Below, one piece after another: positions 7,215 to 53,854 of a DNA stretch of 64,000 nucleotides. Positions within the stretch are counted from its first letter, which is position 1. Each line of letters begins with the position of its first letter. The notes beneath the pieces were generated by a model that made no database searches, was not told where the DNA came from, and saw nothing but the letters and a program-made list of their open reading frames with translations. The stretch is taken from NCBI GenBank assembly GCA_046712825.1, contig JBKKCR010000084.1, positions 2,492-66,491 on the forward strand, written 5' to 3'. Source of the stretch: Actinomycetota bacterium. GTDB taxonomy: Bacteria; Actinomycetota; AC-67. Made by a program: the position numbers and the translations under genes.

Positions 7215-8080
7215 CGGTCGAACCGCGTGTGATCGTCTCCGGTCTCGGGTTCCCCGAAGGGCCGGTATTCCTCGGGAACGGCGAGGTCACGGTCACCGAG
7301 ATCCGTGGGCAATGCATCACTCGGTGCTCGGAAGACTCCAAGACCCTCGTCGCGAAGACCGGTGGGGGAGCCAACGGGGCGGCGCTGGGAGCCGACGGCG
7401 AGCTGTGGGTCGCGAACAACGGGGGATTGAGCCTGGGGCCCGGCGGCTACTGGCACGCGCCCGGCGGGCTCATCGAGGGGCGCATCCAGCGCGTCACGCT
7501 CGACGGAGGCTGTGAAGATCTCCCCGACCTGCCCGGCGACGCGCCGCACCGGCCCAACGACATCTGCTTTGGGCCCGACGGCAAGTTCTACTTCACCGAC
7601 CCGCGCAATTGGGAGGACTTCGCGAACCTGAAGGTCGGCCGGATCTGGCGGCTCGATCCGGGCACGCGTGAAACCGAGGTGATCGCCGACGTTCCGATGT
7701 TCTGCAACGGGATCGGGTTCGGCCTCGACGGGCGTCTCTACGTCGCGCAGTCCAACATCATGAAGATCATCGCTTTCGACTGGACGCCCGAAGGCGTGGG
7801 GGAGCCGCAGGAGTTCGTCACGCTCCCGCGCGGGTTCCCCGACGGGTTCTGCTTCGCGTCCGACGGGGACCTCTACGCGTGCGGCTCGATGGGCGACGTC
7901 ATCCAGGTGTACGACGCCGAGGGCACGCACAAGGAAACGATGGAGTTCCCCGAGCACACCGAGCCGACCAACGCCTGCATCGGCGACGGCACCTTGTACG
8001 TCACCTGCTCCGGCACCGGCGAGCTCGTGGCGTTCGATCTCGGCATCGAGCCGCTCCCTCTGTATCCCTTTCGTTCCTGA
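7211..8080 (+). CDS. SMP-30/gluconolactonase/LRE-like (SGL) beta-propeller protein
   Basis: Repeated propeller blade motifs (GLGFPEGP, ELWVANNGG, NDICFGPDGKFYFTD, GLDGRLYVA, PDGFCFASDGDLY). The N-terminal part of the long six-frame ORF 6020-8080 is Arg-rich artefact. The real start is GTG 7211, overlapping the upstream stop. Confidence 0.7.
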   Translation: MTVEPRVIVSGLGFPEGPVFLGNGEVTVTEIRGQCITRCSEDSKTLVAKTGGGANGAALGADGELWVANNGGLSLGPGGYWHAPGGLIEGRIQRVTLDGGCEDLPDLPGDAPHRPNDICFGPDGKFYFTDPRNWEDFANLKVGRIWRLDPGTRETEVIADVPMFCNGIGFGLDGRLYVAQSNIMKIIAFDWTPEGVGEPQEFVTLPRGFPDGFCFASDGDLYACGSMGDVIQVYDAEGTHKETMEFPEHTEPTNACIGDGTLYVTCSGTGELVAFDLGIEPLPLYPFRS

Positions 8081-35633: not shown

Positions 35634-36419
35634 ATGGGCTTCGACTATCGAGGCAGCGTGGCCGTCGTGACCGGCGCTTCGTCGGGGATCGGTGCCGCCG
35701 TGGCTCGGGATCTCGCCTCCCGCGGCTCGACGGTCGTCGCGGCCGCGCGACGCAGGGACCTTCTTGAGGCCGTCGTAGCCGATTGCCGCCGCGGCGCCCC
35801 GGCGAGCGAAGCGGTCGTCTGCGACATCGGCGACCGTGATCAGGCCGAGGCGCTCGTGCGGGACGCGCTGTCGCGACACGGCCGGATCGATGTGCTCGTC
35901 AACAACGCGGGCATCCCCATGCGGGTGCACGCGACGCGCCTGTCCGCCGACCAGGTGGAGCAGGTCATGCGGATCAATTTCCTGGGTGCGGTCTGGACGA
36001 CGCTCGCAGTGCTTCCGTCGATGGTGGAACGAGGGAGCGGACGGATCGTCAACATCTCGTCCGCCGCCGGCCGGATCCCCAGCCCGCGGGAGGCCGCGTA
36101 TACGGCGTCGAAGCACGCGCTGGCCGGCTGGAGCGAGGTGCTCGCCGGCGACCTGCACCGCACCGGTGTCGAGGTACATCTGATCAATCCGGGACCGATA
36201 CGAACGGAGATCTGGGACAAGGTCCAGGAGCCCGCGGCCTTCCACGGCAAGCTGCACCCACCCGAGCGCATCGCCGCAGCCGTGCGGGACTGCCTGGAGC
36301 ACGGGAAGTTCGAACGGTCGTTCCCGCGATGGCTGGGAGGCCTTCAGTTCTTCAAGCTCCTGGCGCCGCGCGCATTCATCCGTTCGATCGCCCGGTTCGA
36401 TCGCCGGGCCGACAGATAA
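35634..36419 (+). CDS. SDR family oxidoreductase
   Basis: TGASSGIG, NNAG and S...YTASK catalytic motifs. Confidence 0.85.
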   Translation: MGFDYRGSVAVVTGASSGIGAAVARDLASRGSTVVAAARRRDLLEAVVADCRRGAPASEAVVCDIGDRDQAEALVRDALSRHGRIDVLVNNAGIPMRVHATRLSADQVEQVMRINFLGAVWTTLAVLPSMVERGSGRIVNISSAAGRIPSPREAAYTASKHALAGWSEVLAGDLHRTGVEVHLINPGPIRTEIWDKVQEPAAFHGKLHPPERIAAAVRDCLEHGKFERSFPRWLGGLQFFKLLAPRAFIRSIARFDRRADR

Positions 36420-36426
36420 CCGCGGC

Positions 36427-36464
36427 CGGGAGATGGGGGCGTCACGTCAACGCGCCATCTCCCG
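36427..36464. terminator. hairpin between convergent SDR and DoxX genes
   Basis: cgggagatgg - 18 nt - ccatctcccg, a 10-bp perfect stem. Confidence 0.4.
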
Positions 36465-36482
36465 ACCGGCAGCCTGTCGTTC

Positions 36483-37019
36483 TTAAGCGGCGCGCTTCTT
36501 CCGCGTCGCCTCCGGCGCCGCCTGTTCTTGCGCAGGTGCCGGCTCGCGGCTCATCGCGACGATCGATCCGCTGATCGTGCCGAGCAGGATGGCGCTCAAG
36601 CCCCACGCACTGCCGGCGAGCTTGAGATCGAACGCCGAATCGATCGAAAAGGCGCCGGAACCGGCGAAAGCCAGGGTCGCGGCCACGGTGGACAGGACGA
36701 TCGGGTACTCCATGCCGCCGTTCGGGTTCCACAGCCCTTTCGGCGCGTGGACGGCGATGATCGCGTTCAGCATCACGCCGATGATCGCTGCAGCGGCGAA
36801 CGGCGTCAGGAAACCGAGCATGAGCAGCGCGCCGGAGCCGAACTCCACGAGACCGGTGAGCGTCGCCATCGCACGGCCGTTCCGGTAGCCGAGCGAGGAC
36901 ATGAACCCACCGGTTCCTTCGATCCCCTGGCCACCGAAAGACCCGAAGAGTTTCTGGGCGCCGTTCCCTACGAAAAGAGCCCCAACGACTGCACGCAAAA
37001 CAAGCAAACCAACATCCAT
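36483..37019 (-). CDS. DoxX family membrane protein
   Basis: DoxX-like helices (LLVLRAVVGALFVGNGAQKLFG). Start at the internal ATG (MDVGLL). Confidence 0.75.
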   Translation of the reverse strand: MDVGLLVLRAVVGALFVGNGAQKLFGSFGGQGIEGTGGFMSSLGYRNGRAMATLTGLVEFGSGALLMLGFLTPFAAAAIIGVMLNAIIAVHAPKGLWNPNGGMEYPIVLSTVAATLAFAGSGAFSIDSAFDLKLAGSAWGLSAILLGTISGSIVAMSREPAPAQEQAAPEATRKKRAA

Positions 37020-37098
37020 GGGTGACACCTCCCGTAAGGCTCTACCCGGGCGCCGGTCGTTCACACGCACTCCGTCGATAGACTTCGCCGAGCAGACC

Positions 37099-37172
37099 GG
37101 GCCCGTAGCTCAATCGGTTAGAGCACCGGACTCATAATCCGTTGGTTCCTGGTTCGAGACCAGGCGGGCCCA
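37099..37172 (+). tRNA. tRNA-Met (anticodon CAU), elongator-type (or possibly Ile2, which needs lysidine modification)
   Basis: Manual cloverleaf: acceptor GGGCCCG/CGGGCCC, D-arm GCTC...GAGC, anticodon loop CTCATAA, T-arm CCTGG-TTCGAGA-CCAGG. The 1-72 pair is intact, so it is not an initiator. No encoded CCA. Confidence 0.85.
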
Positions 37173-37176
37173 CACG

Positions 37177-39795
37177 GTGAGCAAGGACCTTCCAACAGGC
37201 GTCGTGACCTTCATGTTCACGGACATCGAAGGGTCGACCAAGCTCGTTCGCGAGCTCGGCGACCGGTACGGCGACGTGCTTGCCGATCAACGCCGGATCC
37301 TCCGAGAGGTTTGGCTAACCTGGCGGGGCGTCGAGCGAAGCACGGAGGGCGATTCTTTCTTCATCGTGTTCCGTTCGGCTGCGGATGCCGTCGGAGCGGC
37401 CGCGGAGGCGCAGCGAAGGCTGGCTGCGCACGAGTGGCCGCACGGGTGCCGGGTTCGTGTGCGCATAGGCATGCATACCGGCGCGACGCTCGTCGTGGAC
37501 GACGACTACTTCGGCATCGACGTGAATCGCGCCGCGCGGATAGCCGGCACGAGCCACGGAGGGCAGGTCGTGCTCTCCCGTGCGACGCGCGATCTCCTCG
37601 ATCCGCCGCCGGCGGGGATCGCGCTCAAGGACCTCGGCGAGCACCGCTTGAAGGACCTCGAGGAGCCGGAGTGGCTGTACCAGCTCGTCGGAGAAGGTCT
37701 GCCGGACGAATTCCCCGCGCTCCGCAGCCTCGAAGTCCCAACGAATCTCCCGACCCCTGCAACTTCGCTGATCGGTCGCGCGGCCGAGGTCGCCGAGCTG
37801 GAGGCACTGCTCGAACGGGACGAAACGAGGCTCGTCACGTTGACCGGACCCGGCGGCGCCGGCAAGACCCGGCTCGCGATCGAGGCGGCCGCGCGCGTGC
37901 GCGAGCGCTTCGCGAACGGCGTCTTCTTCGTCTCGCTGGCGGCGGTGACCGACCCCGCGGATGTGCTCCCGACGATCGCTCACGTCCTCGGCGTGGAGAT
38001 CGGATCCCGCAGGGTCGAAGAACGCCTGGCCGAAGACCTCCGGGTCCGATCGCTTCTTCTCGTGCTCGACAACTTCGAGCGCGTCGCGCGCGCTGCCCCG
38101 GGGATCGCAGCGCTTATCGCGGCGGCTCCTCGCCTGAAGGTTCTCGCGACGAGTCAGGCGTCCCTCCGGATCGGCGGGGAGCGCGAGTACGCCGTCGGTC
38201 CACTGGCGACCTCCGCCGGCACCGGCGGCCCCGAGGCGATCGACGACTCACCCGCCGCCGCGCTATTCCTCGAGCGAGCGCGAGCGGTAAAGCCTTCCTT
38301 GCGCGTGACGGCGGCGGATGCGGACGCCGTTCTCGAGATCTGCCGCAGGCTCGACGGGCTTCCTCTGGCGATCGAGCTGGCGGCCGCCCGGATGAAAACG
38401 CTTGCGCCGGGTCAGATCCTCCAACGGTTGGAAAGCCGGCTGACGCTTCTCAGGGGCGGTGCGCGAGACCTCCCTGCACGTCAGCAAACGCTGCGCGACA
38501 CGATCGCGTGGAGCGTCGATCTCCTCGAGCCTCCGGCCGCTTCGCTCTTCCGACACTTCGCCGTCTTCTCGGGCGGGGCAACCATCGATGCGCTCGAGGG
38601 CGTGCTCTCAGGTGACGACGAGGATCCGCTCGGTGCGCTCGACGTGCTCGTCGACCACAACCTCATCATCGCGACCGAGGCACAGGAGAAGCGATTCGAG
38701 ATGCTGCAGACGATCCGCGAGTTCGCGCTGGATCTGTTCGAGGGCTCCGGCGATGCGGAGGATCTCCGGGGCGCGCACGCCTCGTACTTCGCGGGCTTCG
38801 CTGAACGGGCCGACGCGGAGCTACGCGGGGCGGCCCAGAGCGAATGGCGGGTTCGTATCGAGGCCGAGCTCGCGAACTTCCGCGCGGCGCTCGCGTGGTG
38901 TTTCGAGGACGCTTCGCCGGGAGACCGGACCGTGCTCGGCGCGAGGCTCGCCGGAGCGCTCGGCTGGTTCTGGTACACGCACGCGGATGCGCTCGAGGGG
39001 TGTCGCTGGCTGGATCTCGCCCGGGAGAAGGTTCCGCACGCCGGCACAGAGCTGCGGGCCCGGGTCTTGGCGAGGCTCGGGGTGCTCCACGATCAGCGCG
39101 GAGACTTCGAGCCCGCCGCGCGGCTGTTCGAATCGGCCCTCGCCGCCTACCGGGAGCTCGGGGATCGGAGCGGGGTTGCGTCATCGCTCAACAGCTTGGG
39201 GTCGGCTGCCCGCAACGCCGGCGACATCCAGCGGGCCCGGACGTTCTTCGCGGAGAGCTTGTCGATAAGGCGCGCGATCGGGGATCCGGGCGGCGAAGCT
39301 TCCTCGACACACAACCTCGCCGTGATCGCGCTCGACGACGGGGATGGAGAGAGCGCGCGCGAGATGTTCGAGCGATGCATCCGGCTGGACGAGGCGGCCG
39401 GAAACGATTGGGGAGTTGCGGTCGACGGGTGCGGCCTCGCCGACGCGCTGCTGCTCGTCGGTGAGATCGAAGCCGCGGAAGCCAAGGCGGTCGAGTCGCT
39501 TCACGCCCTCGCATCCATCGGGGAGCGCGACTGGATGGCGGAGGCGCTGTCGATCATGTCGGGGATCGCGGCTGCGCGCGGCGACTTCGTCCGCGCCGCC
39601 CGGCTCGCCGGTGCGGCTTGGGGAACATGGAGGACGATCGGTTTTCCCCCCGTCGGCAAAGACCTAGAGCGTCATCACAAGCATTCCTCGGCGGCACGGG
39701 CCGGGTTGCCGGCCGCGGAGTTCGAGCGGGCGCACCTCGAGGGAGAGGCGATGACATTCGACCAGGCGATCGAGTACGCGACGCGCGCTCGCTGA
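37177..39795 (+). CDS. class III adenylate/guanylate cyclase domain-STAND NTPase-TPR protein without DNA-binding output
   Basis: N-terminal cyclase motifs (VTFMFTDIEGSTKL, GDSFFIVF, RVRIGMHTG), P-loop GPGGAGKTRLA, and C-terminal TPR-like repeats. It resembles the Mtb Rv0386/Rv1358 class but has no LuxR HTH. Confidence 0.85.
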   Translation: MSKDLPTGVVTFMFTDIEGSTKLVRELGDRYGDVLADQRRILREVWLTWRGVERSTEGDSFFIVFRSAADAVGAAAEAQRRLAAHEWPHGCRVRVRIGMHTGATLVVDDDYFGIDVNRAARIAGTSHGGQVVLSRATRDLLDPPPAGIALKDLGEHRLKDLEEPEWLYQLVGEGLPDEFPALRSLEVPTNLPTPATSLIGRAAEVAELEALLERDETRLVTLTGPGGAGKTRLAIEAAARVRERFANGVFFVSLAAVTDPADVLPTIAHVLGVEIGSRRVEERLAEDLRVRSLLLVLDNFERVARAAPGIAALIAAAPRLKVLATSQASLRIGGEREYAVGPLATSAGTGGPEAIDDSPAAALFLERARAVKPSLRVTAADADAVLEICRRLDGLPLAIELAAARMKTLAPGQILQRLESRLTLLRGGARDLPARQQTLRDTIAWSVDLLEPPAASLFRHFAVFSGGATIDALEGVLSGDDEDPLGALDVLVDHNLIIATEAQEKRFEMLQTIREFALDLFEGSGDAEDLRGAHASYFAGFAERADAELRGAAQSEWRVRIEAELANFRAALAWCFEDASPGDRTVLGARLAGALGWFWYTHADALEGCRWLDLAREKVPHAGTELRARVLARLGVLHDQRGDFEPAARLFESALAAYRELGDRSGVASSLNSLGSAARNAGDIQRARTFFAESLSIRRAIGDPGGEASSTHNLAVIALDDGDGESAREMFERCIRLDEAAGNDWGVAVDGCGLADALLLVGEIEAAEAKAVESLHALASIGERDWMAEALSIMSGIAAARGDFVRAARLAGAAWGTWRTIGFPPVGKDLERHHKHSSAARAGLPAAEFERAHLEGEAMTFDQAIEYATRAR

Positions 39796-39822
39796 AGCGT
39801 TACCGCCCCGGCGAGTCCGTGA

Positions 39823-40419
39823 TTAGGCCGACAGATCGACCGTCCCGTGATCGCCGTAGGTCAGCTCAGTCTCAAATCCCCAATCCTCGTCGACGAAACG
39901 GCCGGAGGACGTTCCAACTTTGAGTCCATCCGTGCCGAAGTCGAACGGTGAGTTCATCACACGTATCGGGCCCTGCTGATCGGCGCCTGTAAGAAGTTCC
40001 AGCTCCGCAGTCGCAAGAGTGCCGACGCTAAATGTGGGCTTCTTTCCGTCCTTGAAGTCGATCGGGACCTGCTTCACGCCCTTCACCGTGCCGTAGAGCG
40101 CCGCTAGGTCTGCGAACGTCCCGCCTGCTTTCCCCGTGAGGATCGTCTCGAGTGCGCTCCGCTGCTCCTCGCTGGCGGCGTCGTCGATGTAGAAGCCGGC
40201 CGTGATGTTGCCGGCGAACGGATTGCCCGACCACGAGAACGCGATGGCAACCTTGCGACCGCCCAGGTCGACGGATCCGTAGTTCCCTGTGGCGATGCTT
40301 ATGCACTCGATCGCGACGCAAGTCCCTTTGGTTGGGTCGCGACCGAAGATGCATGGGCACGGCGAGTCGCAGGGGCACGCCCCGGCCATTTCACCCTTGA
40401 GGACCCACTTCTCAGCCAT
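39823..40419 (-). CDS. DUF1326-like Cys-rich protein
   Basis: N-terminal WVLKGEMAGACPCDSPCPCIF matches the W.LKG...C.C..CPC hallmark of DUF1326, as recalled from the family description. Confidence 0.55.
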   Translation of the reverse strand: MAEKWVLKGEMAGACPCDSPCPCIFGRDPTKGTCVAIECISIATGNYGSVDLGGRKVAIAFSWSGNPFAGNITAGFYIDDAASEEQRSALETILTGKAGGTFADLAALYGTVKGVKQVPIDFKDGKKPTFSVGTLATAELELLTGADQQGPIRVMNSPFDFGTDGLKVGTSSGRFVDEDWGFETELTYGDHGTVDLSA

Positions 40420-40558
40420 GGCTCCCTCCTTGACTCGCCCTCGAGGAGGGACGCTAACGCCCTAAGGCGGAGGCGTCAAAGGTGAGGCGTCGTTTCCGAG
40501 CTTCAAGCAAAGCCCGACTTTGACCGCCTCCTGGCCGCTGTTCTGGGCGAGGTTCCTG

Positions 40559-41395
40559 CTACAGATCCGGGATCGTGCGCGGGAGGAGCTCGAACGTCCA
40601 ACCGCCGTCGACCTCGAGGAGTTTGCCGGTCACCCACGACGACGCGTCGGAGCACAGGTACAGCGCGGCCGCGGCGACGTCCTCGGGCGTGCCGTTCCGC
40701 TGGAGCAGCGTCCGATCGACCATCGTGTCGCGGATGGGGGTGCCTTTCTCCTCCATGTACCCGAGGTACCAGTTCAAAGCCCAGGTCTCGACGGCGCCGG
40801 GCAGGACGGCGTTCACCCGGATCTTCGGCGCGAGGTCGGATGCCATGAGCTTGGTGGCGTGCGCCATCGCGGCCTTCGCGGTGCCGTATGCGAGATACCC
40901 CCTCGACGCGTGGGCCCCGGCCATCGACCCGATGTTGAGGATCGCCCCGCCGCCGCGCCGGAGCATGTACGGCACCACGAGCCGGGAGAGCTCGACCGGC
41001 GCCGAGACGTTGAAGTGGAAGGCCCACTCCAGATGCTCTGCCTTTGTGTCCATGAAGGGGGCCGGAACCGCGCCGCCGGCGTTGTTGACCGCGATGTCGA
41101 TCCCGCCGAGCTCGGCTACCGTCCGGTCCACCGCCGCCGAGAGCGCATCGAAGTCCATGACGTCGGTCGGGACCACGAGCGCCCGCCGGCCGTGCTCCCG
41201 GATCGCGGCCGCGACGCGTTCCAGATCGGCTTCCGTCCGAGCCAGCAGGGCCACGTCCGCCCCCGCCTCCGCGAAGGTCAGGGCGATGGCCGCGCCGATA
41301 CCCTTGCCGGCGCCCGTCACGATCGCCACGCGGTCGGTCATCTGGAAGCGGTCGAGCAGCGCCATATCCGGCTCCTTGGTCGCGGGGTCGGCCAC
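40559..41395 (-). CDS. SDR family oxidoreductase
   Basis: TGAGKGIG, NNAG, S...YGTAK. Confidence 0.85.
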   Translation of the reverse strand: MADPATKEPDMALLDRFQMTDRVAIVTGAGKGIGAAIALTFAEAGADVALLARTEADLERVAAAIREHGRRALVVPTDVMDFDALSAAVDRTVAELGGIDIAVNNAGGAVPAPFMDTKAEHLEWAFHFNVSAPVELSRLVVPYMLRRGGGAILNIGSMAGAHASRGYLAYGTAKAAMAHATKLMASDLAPKIRVNAVLPGAVETWALNWYLGYMEEKGTPIRDTMVDRTLLQRNGTPEDVAAAALYLCSDASSWVTGKLLEVDGGWTFELLPRTIPDL

Positions 41396-44738: not shown

Positions 44739-47700
44739 TTGTCGGCCAGGTGGGCGCAGGCGATGTCTTTCGGAGAGACCGGCGAGAGCCCCGGAAGGGC
44801 TCCCTCGTTGTTTAGACTCCTTGGGCCGATGAACTGCCCGTCCTGCACGGCAACGAACCCCGACGACGCTTCCTTCTGCGGGAGCTGCGGGACGCCGCTC
44901 GCACCCGAAGGCCCCTGTCCGCGGTGCAACCGGACGAATCCACTCGATCTGAAGTTCTGCCGGGGATGCGGGTACCGGCTCGGCGCCGCCGAGCCTGCAC
45001 GGCAACCCAGTCTTCCCTCCGCGTTCGCGGGAGGCCGGTACAAGGTCGAGCGCTTCCTCGGCGAGGGGGGCCGCAAGCGGGTGTTCCTCGCTCACGACTC
45101 GCGACTCGAGCGCGACGTCGCGCTGGCGCTCATCAAGACCGAGGGGCTCGACCAATCCGGGCTCGACCGGGTCCGCTTCGAGGCGCAGGCGATGGCCCGC
45201 CTCGGGGACCATCAGAACATCGTGACCGTCTTCGACGTGGTGGAGGAGGACGGCTCTATGTATCTGGTGTGTCAGTACATGAGCGGCGGATCGGTTGAAG
45301 ATCTCATCGCCGCCGCGGACGGCCGCGGGCTGCCCTTGGAAGACACGGTGCGCATCGGCGGCCAGGTCGCGCACGCCCTCGAGCACGCGCACGGCCGTGG
45401 CGTCGTCCACCGGGATGTGAAGCCGGGGAACGTTTGGCTCCAAGAGAACGGCAGCGCACGTCTGGGCGACTTCGGGCTCGCGGTCGCCCTCGACCGATCG
45501 CGGCTCACCGCGGAGGGCATGATGCTCGGCACCGTCGCGTACATGGCGCCGGAGCAAGCCATGGGGCGGCCCCCCGACGCCCGGAGCGACCTGTATTCGC
45601 TCGGCGCGATGCTCTACGAGATGCTGACCGGACGTCCGCCGTTCCTCGGCGACGAAGCCGTCGCGATCATCTCGCAGCACATCGGTACCGCTCCGGTCGC
45701 GCCGTCGTGGCACACCCCCGACGTACCACCGGCCCTCGAGCGGTTGGTGCTGGGATTGCTCGCGAAGGATCCCGAGAAGCGGCTCCAGTCGGCGACCGAG
45801 GTCCGCGACGCGCTCGTCAAGATCGCGACGGCCACCACCACGGCCGGTCCATCCGCCGCGGCGCGCGAGGAGGCGAACCCGCTCGACCGGCTCGCCGGCG
45901 GCGTCTTCGTCGGGCGCGAACGAGAGATGGACGATCTACGCGCCGGCTTGGACGACGCGCTCTCGGGTCGAGGACGTCTCTTGCTCCTCATGGGAGAGCC
46001 GGGGATCGGCAAGACGCGCATGGCCGACGAGCTCACCACCTACGCCAGGTTGCGCGGCGCGCAGGTCTTGGTGGGTCGCTGCTACGAAGGCGAAGGCGCG
46101 CCGGCGTACTGGCCGTGGGTCCAGGTGATCCGCGCGTTCATCCACGACCGCGACGCCGCGGCGCTCACGTCGGTCATGGGCACCGGCGCGCCGGAGATCG
46201 CCCAGATCGTTTCGGACGTTCGCGAACGGATCCCGGACCTGCCCGAGCCGCCGGCGCTCGACCCAGAGCAAGCCCGGTTCCGCCTCTTCGATGCGATCGC
46301 AACGTTCCTCAAGAGCGCCTCCCGCGCGCAGCCGCTCGTGATCGTGCTCGACGACCTGCATTGGGCCGACAAGCCGACGCTGCTATTGCTCCAATTCCTC
46401 GCGCGAGAGCTGCGCTCGAGCAGGCTGCTGGTGCTCGGCACCTATCGGGATGTGGAGCTCCGGCGCCAGCATCCGCTGGCTCAGGCACTCGCCGAGCTCG
46501 CCCGCGAGCAGGTGAGCCAGCGGGTGATATTGCGAGGGCTCATGGTGGACGACGTAGCGCGCTTCATCGAGATGACGTGCGGCGTGCAACCCCCGCCCGA
46601 GCTCGTTCGAGCGGTTCACCGCGAGACGGAGGGAAACCCGTTCTTCGTCGCGGAGATCGTGCGTCTCCTCGCCAGCGAAGGGAAATTCGAGGATCCCGGG
46701 GAGAGCTCGTGGAGTCTGAGCATCCCTCAGAGCGTGCGGGAGGTGATCGGCCGCCGGCTCGATCAGCTCTCGGAGAAGACCAACGCGCTGCTGTCTATCG
46801 CTGCCGTCGCCGGGCGCGAGTTTCCGCTCGGGGTCGTTCAAGCGGTGAGCGACCTCGATCCGGCATCGGTGATGGACGCGGTCGACGAGGCACGCGCCGC
46901 TCGTGTGATCGGAGAGGCGCCTCGATCGGTTGATCGTTACATCTTCTCGCACGCGTTGATCCGCGAGACCTTGTACGAGGAGATCCCGACGACGCGCCGC
47001 GTGATGCTCCATCGGCGGATGGGTGAGACGCTCGAGATGCTGTACGGGGAACGCAACACCGCGAATCTTTCGGAGCTTGCTTACCACTTCCTCGAGGCCG
47101 CTCCGGGCGGGGACGTCGGCAAGGCCATCGACTACGCGAGCGCCGCGGCGAAGCGTGCGACCGAGCTTCTCGCCTACGAGGAAGCGGCGCGTCACTACCA
47201 GAGGGCCATCGAGGCGATGTCGCTGCTCGAAACGCCCGACGAGGCTCTGCGGTGCCGGTTCTTGCTGGCGCTCGGCGACGCGCAGCGACGGTCCGGCGAC
47301 GTCGACGCCGCCCGAGCGGCCTTCTTCGACGCGGCAGCCCGCTCTCGCAAGATCGGCGACGCACCCTCCCTCGCCGAAGCGGCGATCGGCTTGCAAGCCG
47401 GTGCCGCGTTCGGTCAGGTGGACGAGAAGCGAGTGGTGATCCTCGAGCAGGCGATCGAGGCGATCGGCGAAAACGATCTCGCGCTCCGTTCTCGTCTCCT
47501 CGGCCACCTGGCTCGCGCGCTGTACTTCTCCGACGATTTCGAGCCCGTGCGCGCGTTGGGCGATCAGACTGTGGCCGTGGCCGAGTCGGCCGATGATCCG
47601 GTGGCGCTCGCCGAGGCGCTCAGTACTCGCGCGTACGTCTTGTGGGCGGTCGAGCCGCCTGAGGCTCGTGAGGCGGCCGGCGGCAGGATCGCCGACATCG

Positions 47701-49223
47701 CTCGCCGCGTCGGTGATGTCGAGCTCGAGCTGGACGGGTTGATGTGGCGGATCATCGCGTTCACCGATATGGGTGACCTCGCCCGCTCGAAGGCGGCGAT
47801 CGACGAATACACCCGAGTTGCGGAGGCGTCCCACATCCCCCGGTACCGGCTGTACGCCCTCTCCCGACAAGCGATGCTCGCCTCCGTTTTCGGACGCTTC
47901 GAGGAGGCGGAACGGCTCTCACTCGAGGCGTTCCGGATCGGCACCAACGCACAGGAGCCGGACGCCATCCAAGTGCGGGCTGGACAGGCATTCGCCAACG
48001 CCTTCGCCACCGGGAACCGTGAGACCATGGCCTGGTCCCAGCAGTCGCTCAAGACCTATGCGGCGACGTACTCAGCCCGGCAACCCTGGACGCGCGTGTT
48101 CGTGTCCCTGGGCGCCTACAGACTCGGCGACACCGCCGAGGCGGTCCGGGAGTTCGACAGAGCCTTCGCCGAAGGTTTGGTGACCCTTCCCGCGCAAGGC
48201 GTGTCGTCCGGGATGATGCTCGCGACGGCGGCCGTGCTCTGCGGACTCTTGGATCGACCCGAAGAGGCGGAGCAGATCGAACCGCTGATCCGGCCCTTCG
48301 AGAAGCGGGTGATCATGGGGGCAGGCGCTGTGTTCTGCAACGGGGTGGGCGCCCGCTATCTCGGGATCCTCGCGACGGTTCGCGGACGTTACGACGAGGC
48401 CGACCGGTTCTTCCGTTGGGGGGTTGATCGTTGCCGGTCGATGGGCGCGCGGCCCTGGGTAGCCGAGATCCTTCACGATCACGCCACGATGCTGCTTGCC
48501 CGCCGCGGGGCCGGCGACGTGGACGAGGCGATTCGCCACCTGGACGGGGCCCTGGAGATAGCGAAAGAGCTCGGGATGTCGCCGCTCGCCGAACGAGCTC
48601 TCCAGCAGAAGATGAGCGCGCAAGGCATGGTGCTCCCCACCGACATCAAGAGCTCGATCGACCGTGTCGCCTCATCGTTGGAGCGCGAACGCCCGAACCT
48701 TCGCAGCCACGCGGCACCGGACGGCACGGTTACCTTGCTCTTCACCGACATCGAGGGTTCCACCGCACTGAACGAACAGGTCGGCGACCGGCGGTGGATC
48801 GAGTTGCTCCGCATGCACAACGCGATCGTGCGCGAGCAGGTCGCCGCGCAGGGTGGGTTCGAGGTGAAATCCTCGGGCGACGGATTCATGGTCGCGTTCT
48901 CCTCGGCGCGACGTGCGGTCGCTTGCGCGGTCGAGGTCCAACGCGCGCTCGCCGAGCACGCGGACAAGGCTCCCGACGACGGGATCCGTGTGCGCATCGG
49001 CTTGCACACCGGTGAGGCGATCGCGGAGGAGGGCGACTTCTACGGACGACACGTCAACCTCGCGGCCCGGGTCGGCGCCGCGGCCGAGGGAGGCGAGATC
49101 CTCGTTTCATCCTTGCTGCGAGAGCTCACGGCCTCCAGCAAAGAGTTCGAGTTCGGCGAGGCGCGCGACGTTCAGCTCAAAGGCCTTACCGGCACGCATC
49201 GGCTCTACCCGGTGAGGTGGTGA
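44739..49223 (+). CDS. multidomain signalling protein: double zinc-ribbon, Ser/Thr protein kinase, STAND/AAA NTPase, TPR-like region, C-terminal class III adenylate/guanylate cyclase (1494 aa)
   Basis: N-terminal CPSC...CGSC and CPRC...CRGC. Kinase motifs HRDVKPGN, DFG and APE. P-loop GEPGIGKTRMA with hhhhDD Walker B (LVIVLDDLHW). Long helical TPR-like middle region. C-terminal cyclase (VTLLFTDIEGSTAL, GDGFMVAF, RVRIGLHTGEA). An alternative start at ATG 44829 (MNCPSC) is possible. Confidence 0.9.
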   Translation: MSARWAQAMSFGETGESPGRAPSLFRLLGPMNCPSCTATNPDDASFCGSCGTPLAPEGPCPRCNRTNPLDLKFCRGCGYRLGAAEPARQPSLPSAFAGGRYKVERFLGEGGRKRVFLAHDSRLERDVALALIKTEGLDQSGLDRVRFEAQAMARLGDHQNIVTVFDVVEEDGSMYLVCQYMSGGSVEDLIAAADGRGLPLEDTVRIGGQVAHALEHAHGRGVVHRDVKPGNVWLQENGSARLGDFGLAVALDRSRLTAEGMMLGTVAYMAPEQAMGRPPDARSDLYSLGAMLYEMLTGRPPFLGDEAVAIISQHIGTAPVAPSWHTPDVPPALERLVLGLLAKDPEKRLQSATEVRDALVKIATATTTAGPSAAAREEANPLDRLAGGVFVGREREMDDLRAGLDDALSGRGRLLLLMGEPGIGKTRMADELTTYARLRGAQVLVGRCYEGEGAPAYWPWVQVIRAFIHDRDAAALTSVMGTGAPEIAQIVSDVRERIPDLPEPPALDPEQARFRLFDAIATFLKSASRAQPLVIVLDDLHWADKPTLLLLQFLARELRSSRLLVLGTYRDVELRRQHPLAQALAELAREQVSQRVILRGLMVDDVARFIEMTCGVQPPPELVRAVHRETEGNPFFVAEIVRLLASEGKFEDPGESSWSLSIPQSVREVIGRRLDQLSEKTNALLSIAAVAGREFPLGVVQAVSDLDPASVMDAVDEARAARVIGEAPRSVDRYIFSHALIRETLYEEIPTTRRVMLHRRMGETLEMLYGERNTANLSELAYHFLEAAPGGDVGKAIDYASAAAKRATELLAYEEAARHYQRAIEAMSLLETPDEALRCRFLLALGDAQRRSGDVDAARAAFFDAAARSRKIGDAPSLAEAAIGLQAGAAFGQVDEKRVVILEQAIEAIGENDLALRSRLLGHLARALYFSDDFEPVRALGDQTVAVAESADDPVALAEALSTRAYVLWAVEPPEAREAAGGRIADIARRVGDVELELDGLMWRIIAFTDMGDLARSKAAIDEYTRVAEASHIPRYRLYALSRQAMLASVFGRFEEAERLSLEAFRIGTNAQEPDAIQVRAGQAFANAFATGNRETMAWSQQSLKTYAATYSARQPWTRVFVSLGAYRLGDTAEAVREFDRAFAEGLVTLPAQGVSSGMMLATAAVLCGLLDRPEEAEQIEPLIRPFEKRVIMGAGAVFCNGVGARYLGILATVRGRYDEADRFFRWGVDRCRSMGARPWVAEILHDHATMLLARRGAGDVDEAIRHLDGALEIAKELGMSPLAERALQQKMSAQGMVLPTDIKSSIDRVASSLERERPNLRSHAAPDGTVTLLFTDIEGSTALNEQVGDRRWIELLRMHNAIVREQVAAQGGFEVKSSGDGFMVAFSSARRAVACAVEVQRALAEHADKAPDDGIRVRIGLHTGEAIAEEGDFYGRHVNLAARVGAAAEGGEILVSSLLRELTASSKEFEFGEARDVQLKGLTGTHRLYPVRW

Positions 49224-49882
49224 TGACCCAGGGCTTCGTCGCCGCGCTGGAGCCGGGCGACCTCGAGGCGCTGACGGCGTGGGGACGCGCGCGGCGTTTC
49301 CGTCGCGGAGCGATCCTCTTCCACGAAGGCGAAGGTGCCGAGCACGTCCTCATCGTTCGAGCCGGCCGCGTGAAAGTTTCGAGCTTCACCGCCGACGGCA
49401 GGGAGGTGGTCCTCGCGGTTCGCGGGCCCGGCGAGCTGCTCGGGGAGCTCTCCGCTATCGATGGTGAGCCGCGTTCGGCCTCGGCGAGCGCGCTCGAGCA
49501 GGTCGACGTGCTGAGCGTGCCGGCCGAAGACTTCCGCGCCTTCCTGGAGATGCGTCCGCGCGTCACCGTATCGCTCATGCAGATGCTCTCCCGGAAGCTC
49601 CGCGACGCCGACCGGAAACGCATCGAGTTCGGCGCGCACGACACCGTTGGGCGCGTTTGCCACCGGCTGGTCGAGCTCGCAGAGCGTTTCGGAGAAGAGT
49701 CCACGCGCGGGCTCCGCATCACGCTCCCGCTGTCGCAGCAAGAGCTCGCCGGATGGACCGGCGCGTCCAGGGAGGCCGTGAGCAAGGCGCTCCACCAGCT
49801 CCGATCGCGCGGCTACATCGAGACCGCGCGCCGCGGGATCACCGTCCTCGACATGCCGGCGCTCCGTCGCCGCGCGATGTGA
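49217..49882 (+). CDS. Crp/Fnr family transcriptional regulator (cNMP-binding domain plus HTH)
   Basis: cNMP-binding beta-roll (ILFHEGEGAEHVLIVRAGRVKV...GELLGELSAIDGEPRSASA) and C-terminal HTH (LSQQELAGWTGASREAVSKALHQLRSRGYI). Start GTG 49217 or ATG 49220 overlaps the kinase-cyclase stop. Confidence 0.85.
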   Translation: MVMTQGFVAALEPGDLEALTAWGRARRFRRGAILFHEGEGAEHVLIVRAGRVKVSSFTADGREVVLAVRGPGELLGELSAIDGEPRSASASALEQVDVLSVPAEDFRAFLEMRPRVTVSLMQMLSRKLRDADRKRIEFGAHDTVGRVCHRLVELAERFGEESTRGLRITLPLSQQELAGWTGASREAVSKALHQLRSRGYIETARRGITVLDMPALRRRAM

Positions 49883-52808: not shown

Positions 52809-53854
52809 AGGGTCGCGGCCTGCTCTTCTTCCTCGTCCGTCAAAGCCTTGACGTGCGCCGCGATCTGCTCCATCGGCGGGCGCTCGACCTCGATGCTGTT
52901 GTGGATCTCGATGCCGTCCGGTGAGGGACGCAGCAGTGGCGCGGCAGAGAAATCGATTCCGGAACGCATACGCCCCCGCTCTTCGGCCCGGCGCAGGATC
53001 GTTTTGCCGATCGTGTACGCCATCGGCCCCAGCTCGGCGAGCGACCGATTCCGGTGGATGCGCTCGTCGAGGTCGACCTGCGCCATCGCGTCGAGACCAA
53101 CGGTGTCGAGCAGGTCGATCAGCAGGCCGACTTCCACGCTGTACCCGGTGAAGAACGGCACGCGCTTGAGGACGTCGATGTGGCCGGCGTACTCGCCGGA
53201 CAGCGGCTGGATGAACCCGGACAGCTCGGGGAACAGCGCCGCCAGCATCGGACGGGCGAGGAGCTCGGTGACGCGGCCGCCCTCGTCGGGGATCAGCTCT
53301 TCCCCGCGCGCGATCGGGCGGCGGTAGAAGCCCTTGGTGAAGGAGATCGTCGGGTCGCTCAGGATCGGCGCGACGAGGCGCGTCACGAACCGCGTGGAGA
53401 AATTGCGGATGTCGGAGTCGACCCACACGACGATGTCGCCGGACACAACCGAAAGGCTCCGCCACAACGCTTCGCCCTTGCCGAGCACGACCGGCATCTC
53501 GGGGACGAGGTCGGAGATGTCGTGCACGATCGCGCCGGCCTCGGTCGCGATCTCGGGTGTGCCGTCCTCCGACGAGCAATCGACAACGAGCAACTCATCG
53601 ACGAGACCCGAGCCTTCGATCAGGTGTCGCTTGATCGTCGAGCAGATCGGACCGATCGTGGCAGCTTCGTTGAGCGCGGGAAGCACCACGCTGATGCGCT
53701 CGCCCGACGCGAGCTTGCGGGCGGCGAGCTCGCGGGCGCCCGGCAAGTTGCGCGATCCGAACGTGCGATGCCGGTGCCAGCGTTGCGCCAGGCCCGTGAG
53801 CCAAGGGAACTCGTAGGCTTCGTTCGAACCGGTCACCATGTCGTCCTCCGGCAA
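52805..53854 (-). CDS. gpgS: glucosyl-3-phosphoglycerate synthase (GpgS, GT81)
   Basis: ISVVLPALNEAATIG, DxD (VDSD) and overall collinearity with the mycobacterial GpgS family. Confidence 0.8.
   Translation of the reverse strand: MPEDDMVTGSNEAYEFPWLTGLAQRWHRHRTFGSRNLPGARELAARKLASGERISVVLPALNEAATIGPICSTIKRHLIEGSGLVDELLVVDCSSEDGTPEIATEAGAIVHDISDLVPEMPVVLGKGEALWRSLSVVSGDIVVWVDSDIRNFSTRFVTRLVAPILSDPTISFTKGFYRRPIARGEELIPDEGGRVTELLARPMLAALFPELSGFIQPLSGEYAGHIDVLKRVPFFTGYSVEVGLLIDLLDTVGLDAMAQVDLDERIHRNRSLAELGPMAYTIGKTILRRAEERGRMRSGIDFSAAPLLRPSPDGIEIHNSIEVERPPMEQIAAHVKALTDEEEEQAATL

Follow-up and report, generated by a model that had tools for sequence, protein, structure and literature searches.

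Introduction

The effector of the Streptomyces regulator AfsR is kept inactive by the C-terminal nucleotide-binding oligomerisation domain (NOD) and TPR domains and becomes active when ATP is bound (PMC10936776). For the class to which the archaeal STAND protein PH0952 belongs, double autoinhibition has been reported (cited in PMC10936776). The gene described here occupies positions 37177-39795 of a 64,000-nucleotide (nt) stretch of Actinomycetota DNA (contig JBKKCR010000084.1). This whole stretch is referred to as the window, and all window coordinates refer to it. The gene encodes an 872-amino-acid (aa) signalling protein, predicted to be cytosolic, that is almost certainly an AfsR-type STAND protein in which a class III cyclase has taken the position of the DNA-binding SARP domain. 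Its GTG start codon follows the end of a tRNA gene after 4 nt. Judged from the sequence, the simplest explanation of this abutment is that gene and tRNA are co-transcribed and that the mRNA is translated almost without a leader. The whole explanation, in which an AfsR-type cyclase switch is expressed through a tRNA promoter and tRNA processing, was assigned a probability of approximately 0.6.

Operons led by tRNA genes occur in E. coli (metY-rimP-nusA-infB; thrU-tyrU-glyT-thrT-tufB), and mitochondrial tRNA punctuation yields leaderless mRNAs that abut tRNAs. In Thermococcus, a tRNA-Lys lies within the 5' untranslated region of TK0306 (PMC4247193). Mycobacterial mRNAs with leaders of up to 5 nt are treated as leaderless, a 5' GUG or AUG suffices for initiation, and TANNNT is the preferred SigA -10 motif (PMC6448022). 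In the actinobacterium P. acnes, endonucleolytic cuts are made a few nt 3' of tRNAs, and leaderless starts comprise 29% GUG and 3% UUG (PMC3848588).

Results

Reading frame and domain architecture

In the following, L081-L090 denote the fetched contigs carrying the closest homologues, and P0002-P0007 denote homologue proteins. The GTG at 37177 was considered the sole usable start because a TAA lies in frame at 37135, within the tRNA anticodon loop, no ATG, GTG or TTG occurs between this TAA and 37177, and the N-terminal motif DLPTGVVTFMFTDIEGST (xxDLPTGVVTFMFTDIEGST) is kept across orthologues. The gene 3' of the stop at 39795 lies on the opposite strand.

The original prediction had described an 872-aa protein in the order cyclase, P-loop NTPase and TPR, and this order was recovered from the open reading frame (ORF) and Pfam matches. 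Guanylate_cyc (PF00211) matched aa 7-160 with 48.7 bits (cut-off 21.9). At aa 198-304, matches were obtained to NB-ARC (27.2 bits; cut-off 23.5) and AAA_22 (32.4 bits; cut-off 27), and AAA_16 reached 30.8 bits, under its cut-off of 32.6. TPR_12, TPR_10 and TPR_7 were matched at aa 628-739. Within aa ~456-514 there was a weak match to WHD_ROQ1 (E=0.095), and HTH_77 is recorded in many homologues.

No helix-turn-helix (HTH) family was found in the 872-aa protein, of which the middle part and the last 116 aa were also scanned separately at E≤10. GerE gave no match at E≤0.1 in the whole protein or at E≤10 in the last 116 aa, and neither Trans_reg_C nor BTAD was matched by Pfam anywhere in the protein. 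In the AlphaFold model the C-terminus is made of TPR-like helical hairpins (mean pLDDT 90.8). The proposed lack of a C-terminal LuxR HTH, by which the protein had been set apart from the Rv0386 class, thus withstood a search for a degenerate domain. Since no LuxR HTH was found, the protein is placed, by its domain content, outside the Rv0386 class.

The AfsR-type switch and its family

The Walker A motif is GPGGAGKT (aa 224-231) and the Walker B motif LLLVLDNFE (D298, E301). Across 55 homologues, G224, G226, G227, G229, K230, D298 and E301 were invariant. When a profile of these 55 homologues was compared with Streptomyces AfsR (8k60_I), profile positions 189-810 aligned colinearly with AfsR 286-926 as a single segment (E=4.6e-36), which covers the NOD, arm and TPR regions. 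Single-sequence PDB searches with the two isolated NOD modules were uninformative, and it was the profile search that gave the AfsR match; in a single-sequence alignment to AfsR, query 188-541 was paired with chain positions 286-637. The best whole-model PDB folds (Foldseek) were PH0952 (6mfv), M. avium Ma1120 (TM-score ~0.9), Apaf-1 and plant NLR resistosomes. The protein is accordingly described as having an AfsR-like switch module, judged by profile and fold, yet no SARP, its N-terminus being a predicted cyclase.

The cyclase-STAND-TPR architecture is common, and the protein is an ordinary member of a very large family. At least 8000 homologous proteins were retrieved at E≤1e-10. Nearly all of the best 120 aligned over 92-100% of the query, with identities of 41-91%, and shared its content of cyclase, AAA_22 or NB-ARC, HTH_77 and TPR. 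An exact look-up returned no recorded entry for the 872-aa protein. The best 120 come mainly from Actinomycetota and Chloroflexota and carry the JGI label 'predicted ATPase/class 3 adenylate cyclase'; in GTDB species genomes, relatives are encoded at 328 loci. We know of no characterised member with exactly this architecture, and none seems to have been studied biochemically.

Some relatives carry additional modules on the same core at 41-47% identity: a C-terminal LuxR/GerE HTH in P0021, P0035, P0040 and P0042, and an N-terminal Ser/Thr kinase (Pkinase) in P0058, P0068, P0078, P0086 and P0092. The HTH is therefore regarded as an optional add-on in the family, because longer members (e.g. P0021, P0035, P0040) carry GerE. 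From such domain content, input and output modules appear to be exchanged freely within the cyclase-NOD-TPR family.

Residues of the cyclase domain

By Foldseek, the cyclase domain matched Ma1120 with TM-scores of 0.87-0.92 and Rv1900c with 0.84-0.90. Residues were assigned by alignment to Ma1120, for which the roles of K101, D157, A164 and R168 have been described (PMC4215837). The putative metal ligands are D16 (FTDIEGS) and D59 (GDSF), and the transition-state residues are N117 and R121 (VNRAAR), with roles taken from the same source. Asp110 is aligned with Ma1120 Asp157, the second specificity residue. Ser55 is aligned with Ma1120 Lys101, the position of the canonical substrate-specifying Lys, and more distant members have Gly there. 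The Lys...Asp pair that specifies substrate in ATP-specific class III adenylyl cyclases is thus incomplete, with Ser replacing Lys. In the 55 homologues, D16, D59 and R121 were invariant and D115, V116 and R118 nearly so; His takes the transition-state Asn position in distant family members.

By its residues, the domain looks catalytically competent. Its product is probably cAMP, although the nucleotide preference is unreadable from the sequence because the first specificity residue is Ser and not Lys.

Identity of the tRNA

The Rfam end of the tRNA at 37172 confirmed the proposed distance of 4 bp between the tRNA and the GTG. The label tRNA-Met(CAU) given previously held for the anticodon, which is CAT, and failed for the methionine identity. 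The best E. coli match was a CAT-anticodon gene annotated as tRNA-Ile (ileX) in 5175 of 5426 genomes, with 78-79.5% identity over the full length in what is a cross-phylum comparison. The C4-C6 acceptor bases and the TGGT variable loop are common to the tRNA and ileX. An initiator tRNA is excluded by G1:C72. The tRNA is probably tRNA-Ile2 (lysidine-modified, reading AUA) and not elongator tRNA-Met, a name that was probably given from the anticodon alone.

A compensatory change in the anticodon stem (A31:T39 to G31:C39) separates the window from L082. The window tRNA also has a C27-U43 mismatch in this stem, where L085 has G-U. Isoleucine codons were counted in ten genes between 35634 and 52042 and comprised 188 ATC, 13 ATA and 2 ATT (203 total). 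A preference for ATA over ATT is unusual for a genome of ~67% GC and implies a real demand for tRNA-Ile2. Enrichment of ATA in the cyclase gene was considered as a tie to this tRNA and rejected, the value (3 of 35 Ile codons) being similar to that of neighbouring genes (13/203).

The tRNA-gene junction in relatives

The abutment was found in two further contigs. In L084, which is 91% identical in nt to the window over 9.8 kb, the tRNA at 7923-7997 is followed by a GTG at 8001. In L085, an NCBI metagenome-assembled genome of Actinomycetota whose protein is 71% identical, the tRNA at 1063-1137 is followed by a TTG start at 1141 after the 4-nt spacer CGTC.

Other close relatives carry insertions at this place. 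L082 and L083 (72%) are syntenic on both sides, with a 5.8-kb insertion that extends from right after the tRNA 3' end to just before the ATG of the gene. The insertion (L082 4205-10000, also in L083) contains a Hen1 methyltransferase and a Pnkp (kinase/phosphatase/ligase) RNA-repair cassette plus two unknown ORFs. In L086 and L087 (70%), the tRNA is reduced to its 3' 45 nt, and the 2.7 kb that separate this remnant from the gene encode DUF4012, a CDGSH protein and, between them, a small ORF. At L086 83-130 the 5' half of the tRNA has been replaced and the anticodon loop mutated to CTCATGA. The DUF4012 membrane-protein gene of L086 has its ATG 1 nt after the discriminator of the tRNA remnant (GGGCCCA-C-ATG), a second gene start that abuts this tRNA end. 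In this lineage, genes may thus be able to insert at that position. In L090 (69%), a phage-type integrase ORF at 471-1118 lies 385 nt upstream of orthologue P0005 and fits an integration site upstream of the gene. In L081, which comes from the same assembly as L084 and is ~89% identical in nt over the gene, homology is lost upstream of window position 37411, inside the cyclase domain. This L081 copy (breakpoint ~9947) has no homology upstream of codon 79 and lacks the first metal-binding Asp; it is a truncated gene or a chimeric long-read assembly. A sister clade (P0006, P0007) has the gene downstream of a different tRNA, tRNA-Lys(TTT), ~48 nt away in L089 (5188-5320) and with a 6.6-kb insertion in L088 (1319-1393 and about 7985-8003). 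The database start of P0007 (MFTDIEGST) was probably called too short.

The 3' flank of the tRNA is thus an insertion hotspot that has received several independent cargoes in close relatives. The independent insertions placed exactly at the junction, the tRNA 3'-half remnant, the nearby integrase, the L081 breakpoint and the second tRNA adjoined by the sister clade all favour another account of the abutment. According to this account, the flank is a site of recombination or integration, deletion or excision brought the gene against the tRNA, and expression does not depend on tRNA processing. A duplicate of the tRNA 3' end, as an att site would leave, was sought in the window at up to 3 mismatches, and none was found besides the tRNA itself.

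The phylogeny weighs against such a scar. In a neighbour-joining tree the window protein was sister to a clade containing P0002-P0005, and the L085 protein was nested in that clade, among the lineages with junction insertions. The most parsimonious order of events is therefore an ancestral abutment with derived insertions. On these alignments, the abutment is taken to have been inherited over at least ~29% protein divergence, and an intact start codon has been kept at the same offset down to 71% aa identity. A neutral origin, the main rival reading, is held to be less likely than expression through the tRNA.

The abutment appears restricted to the near clade, because no same-strand tRNA lies directly upstream at any of 80 GTDB loci with homologues at ≤45% identity. 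Two pattern scans of JGI metagenome contigs for the junction of tRNA end and protein N-terminus returned 0 matches. The fetched loci contain 18 other tRNAs, and for these the first same-strand ORF of 100 codons or more begins no closer than 39 nt downstream, with one exception that may be a spurious ORF. A gap of 3-4 nt between tRNA and gene is unusual in this small sample of 18 tRNAs.

Expression of the cyclase gene

A TANNNT hexamer is found 13-14 nt upstream of the tRNA in four lineages (TAGACT in the window, L084 and L082; TACACT in L085), and the surrounding intergenic sequence has diverged. Neither a -10-like box nor a terminator was found between the tRNA and the GTG. A consensus scan of 36300-40600 detected no sigma-70-type promoter, and terminator-like matches there were at chance level. 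Because the gap leaves no room for a promoter or terminator, transcription of the cyclase gene would pass through the tRNA gene or start within it.

Probable co-transcription of tRNA and gene had been proposed already, and three features speak for it: the 4-nt gap contains no -10-like box, a conserved TANNNT precedes the tRNA, and L084 and L085 show identical spacing. Co-transcription is considered likely on these grounds. Read-through from the promoter of the upstream tRNA (probably tRNA-Ile2) would then transcribe the cyclase gene. Since CCA is not encoded, 3' maturation of the tRNA needs an endonucleolytic cut at or just after the discriminator. If RNase Z or an RNase E-type enzyme cuts directly behind the discriminator, the mRNA set free would have no more than 4 nt of leader, and its GUG could be translated by the leaderless route that is common in Actinomycetota. 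Translation of such a processed, near-leaderless mRNA is proposed tentatively, at somewhat less than an even chance. Folding of the tRNA-junction region gave z=-2.6; the minimum free energy structure lacked the cloverleaf, and no interpretable junction structure was seen.

Orthologues that have been parted from the tRNA carry TAGGGT-7 nt-GTG (L086) or TACGCT-6 nt-GTG (L088, L089). A TANNNT placed 6-7 nt before a GTG is the signature of a leaderless gene, and because it occurs in these three contigs the gene lineage appears adapted to leaderless translation.

If the gene was brought against the tRNA by deletion or excision, it could be expressed from an internal promoter, CATAAT (37133-37138, anticodon loop), or from the unprocessed precursor through a Shine-Dalgarno (SD)-like AGGCGG (37162-37167, T-stem/acceptor strand), 9 nt before the GTG. 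Both elements are present in the sequence. However, CATAAT and CCAGGCGGG are set by tRNA structure (anticodon loop, T stem, acceptor stem), so that their presence is uninformative about a promoter or SD role. CATAAT has no -35-like element and was not picked up in the consensus promoter scan, and the SD-like bases are paired in the folded tRNA. Even a neutral origin would still imply transcription through the tRNA gene or from within it.

Several points weigh against expression through the tRNA, or limit what can be said of the switch. Co-transcription, the cleavage site and translation have all been deduced from sequence. A 4-nt leader with a 5' monophosphate may be translated poorly and degraded quickly. 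The start in L085 is TTG, which is rare as a leaderless start. In sister lineages (L082, L086), 2.7-5.8 kb have been inserted at the junction, and the linkage to the tRNA is therefore dispensable for persistence of the gene. The abutment is present in three contigs only, two of which are closely related, and the JGI pattern scans added none. The kept spacing could simply reflect that no indels fell within 4 nt. For the cyclase, replacement of the adenine-specifying Lys by Ser55 (Gly in distant members) makes the predicted product uncertain.

The second cyclase protein of the window

A second cyclase protein, with an N-terminal Zn-ribbon and Ser/Thr kinase (Table 1), is encoded downstream. Its order of NTPase, TPR and cyclase and its distance of about 5 kb had been predicted correctly (Pfam; 4.9 kb). 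The two proteins had also been called permuted paralogues, one cyclase-NTPase-TPR and the other NTPase-TPR-cyclase. Both do combine TPR repeats with a class III cyclase and a STAND-type P-loop NTPase, and the two genes are syntenic in L081, L082 and L085. Their cyclase domains, the only regions aligned significantly by BLASTP, were 42% identical over 138 aa (E=9e-25), or 41.5% when compared in isolation.

Similarity between the NTPase modules, which had been set beforehand as the test of paralogy, was insignificant by BLASTP: the NTPase regions gave E=1.9, and the isolated modules gave E=0.14 over 53 aa around Walker A. The NTPases also belong to different Pfam families (AAA_16 with 114.7 bits in the kinase fusion, NB-ARC/AAA_22 in the 872-aa protein), and the NOD-TPR block of the latter is colinear with AfsR. 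The kinase-fusion cyclase is nearer to Ma1120 (49.4% identity) than to the cyclase of the 872-aa protein, which is itself 35% identical to Ma1120. Module permutation of a common ancestor is therefore regarded as very improbable. These comparisons indicate that the two proteins are independent fusions of a cyclase to different STAND switches, with no permutation, and that the two cyclase domains are homologous though not mutually nearest relatives.

The kinase fusion reaches 336 bits, against a cut-off of 705.75, in a partial alignment to NCBIfam TIGR03903, 'TOMM system kinase/cyclase fusion protein'. Its kinase domain also matches PADLOC PD-T4-6 and mad6 strongly, which is probably generic Ser/Thr kinase similarity.

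Proposed mechanism and genomic context

STAND proteins generally pass from a closed monomer to an ATP-bound oligomer, and the active sites of class III cyclases form at the dimer interface. By analogy with other STAND proteins, the arm and TPR sensor of the 872-aa protein would keep an ADP-bound NOD closed, with the cyclase monomeric and inactive. Binding of a ligand and ATP would open the NOD and drive oligomerisation. Two cyclase domains would thereby be joined, dimer-interface active sites would form, and synthesis of a cyclic nucleoside monophosphate (cNMP) would be switched on. The signal would be read by cNMP-binding proteins, and a likely reader is the Crp-family regulator (Table 1), whose gene lies 9.4 kb downstream and belongs to the same conserved neighbourhood. 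Because the Crp gene overlaps the stop of the kinase fusion by 7 nt, a cyclase and a cNMP receptor may be translationally coupled.

The neighbourhood is kept in L081, L082, L085 and L086 and comprises: the cyclase-STAND-TPR gene; a variable gene; adh_short; a CitMHS/TrkA_C transporter; the kinase-cyclase fusion; and Crp. Composition is flat across the window (GC 0.64-0.72), and no island signal was found in the composition profile of the window. ARAGORN reported a 97-nt 'tRNA-Ala(cgc)' at 53667-53763 (-) where the Rfam gathering-threshold scan had no tRNA; the call is probably false, unless the gene is an unusual, interrupted one.

An NLR-like (Avs-type) anti-phage sensor, in which the TPR region binds a phage protein, the STAND module oligomerises and the cyclase makes an alarm nucleotide as in Pycsar, would match the effector-STAND-repeat layout of Avs/NLR immune sensors, the resistosome and Apaf-1 folds, the variable gene flanks with mobile-element traces and the membership of Pycsar cyclases in the same superfamily, but it is given hardly any weight, since PADLOC returned no STAND, Avs or Pycsar match (only the generic TPR model PDLC01169 with 41 bits and two matches at E≥0.002), the gene's chromosomal surroundings are conserved, include dehydrogenases, a transporter and a Crp regulator, and are no defence island, no cNMP-activated effector was found adjoining it, and the closest characterised relative, AfsR, is a housekeeping regulator.

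Table 1. Positions of the features discussed, in window coordinates
Feature	Position	Strand	Basis and remarks
TAGACT, -10-like hexamer (TANNNT), putative tRNA promoter	37079..37084	+	14 nt upstream of tRNA 5' end; predicted transcription start site ~37091; function inferred
tRNA, anticodon CAT, discriminator A at 37172, no encoded CCA	37099..37172	+	ARAGORN (37099-37173); Rfam RF00005, 69.8 bits
Spacer CACG between tRNA discriminator and start codon, 4 nt	37173..37176	+	Sequence; same length in L084 (CACG) and L085 (CGTC)
Coding sequence, 872 aa, GTG start, cyclase-STAND(NOD)-TPR signalling protein	37177..39795	+	ORF; Pfam; homologues; profile match; AlphaFold model; Foldseek
Class III nucleotidyl cyclase catalytic domain, aa 7-160	37195..37656	+	Pfam PF00211; alignment to Ma1120; Foldseek
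NOD, NB-ARC/AfsR type, aa ~189-541	37741..38799	+	Pfam NB-ARC/AAA_22/AAA_16; AfsR match; fold matches
Arm and TPR sensor region, aa ~542-872, without DNA-binding domain at its end	38800..39792	+	TPR families; AfsR profile match
Second cyclase protein (kinase fusion): Zn-ribbon, Ser/Thr kinase (Pkinase), AAA_16 STAND, TPR, cyclase	44739..49223	+	Pfam; 4.9 kb from the cyclase-STAND-TPR gene
Crp-family regulator (cNMP_binding and HTH_Crp_2)	49217..49882	+	Overlaps kinase-fusion stop by 7 nt; same arrangement in L082

Discussion

The protein does not represent a new kind. Many cyclase-STAND-TPR proteins are encoded in Actinomycetota, Chloroflexota and other phyla, and databases label them already. 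Its description as an AfsR with a cyclase effector gives a concrete model of activation, namely NOD-driven dimerisation of a class III cyclase. The abutment to the tRNA is the unusual feature of the gene and a more useful lead than the protein. If expression through the tRNA is true, the locus is a clean natural case in which 3' processing of a tRNA creates the 5' end of an mRNA that is then translated leaderless, and it bears on the origin of leaderless mRNAs and on the handling of 5'-monophosphate ends in Actinomycetota. A further step would be to see here a bacterial counterpart of mitochondrial tRNA punctuation, in which the tRNA gives the promoter, its 3' maturation cut makes the 5' end of an effectively leaderless mRNA, and expression of a STAND-cyclase is coupled to the transcription and processing of a rare-codon tRNA (probably tRNA-Ile2); this is speculative and less likely than not.

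AfsR of S. coelicolor (large SARP; SARP-NOD-arm-TPR; PDB 8k60/8jke) shares with the 872-aa protein a colinear NOD-arm-TPR block, a Walker A and VLDN-type Walker B motif, and an N-terminal position of the effector. The effector of AfsR is an OmpR-type/BTA SARP that binds promoters directly, whereas here it is a class III cyclase with a diffusible second messenger as its predicted output. Ser/Thr phosphorylation is a further level of regulation in the AfsK/AfsR pair. Over the whole chain, the fold is matched best (Foldseek E=9e-13) by the TPR-sensor STAND protein PH0952 of P. horikoshii (PDB 6mfv); PH0952 has the same NOD-arm-TPR organisation, but it is archaeal, 14% identical and without a cyclase effector.

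The cyclase-ATPase-LuxR HTH proteins of M. tuberculosis (Rv0386, Rv1358, Rv2488c) likewise carry their class III cyclase at the N-terminus, ahead of a P-loop STAND ATPase and helical repeats. They differ in their C-terminal LuxR/GerE HTH, which is absent here, and the NTPase here looks closer to the NB-ARC/AfsR type, with AAA_16 just below its cut-off. According to Castro et al. in 2005, Rv0386 reportedly also lacks the canonical Lys/Asp specificity pair (Gln/Asn). Among cyclase domains of solved structure, the closest is that of the class III adenylyl cyclase Ma1120 of M. avium (PDB 4wp3 and others), with 35% identity and a TM-score of 0.9, and its metal-binding Asp pair, Asp157 and Arg168 all have equivalents in the 872-aa protein. 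Its Lys101 is replaced here by Ser55, its Ala164 corresponds to the canonical Asn117, and Ma1120 is a stand-alone cyclase.

As in tRNA-led operons and in tRNA punctuation, a tRNA gene stands 5' of a coding gene on what is predicted to be one transcript, with tRNA processing setting the mRNA 5' end. The tRNA-led operons of E. coli generally have spacers of tens to hundreds of nt and leaders that contain an SD sequence. Here the spacer is 4 nt, and the mRNA is predicted to be effectively leaderless, as in mitochondria.

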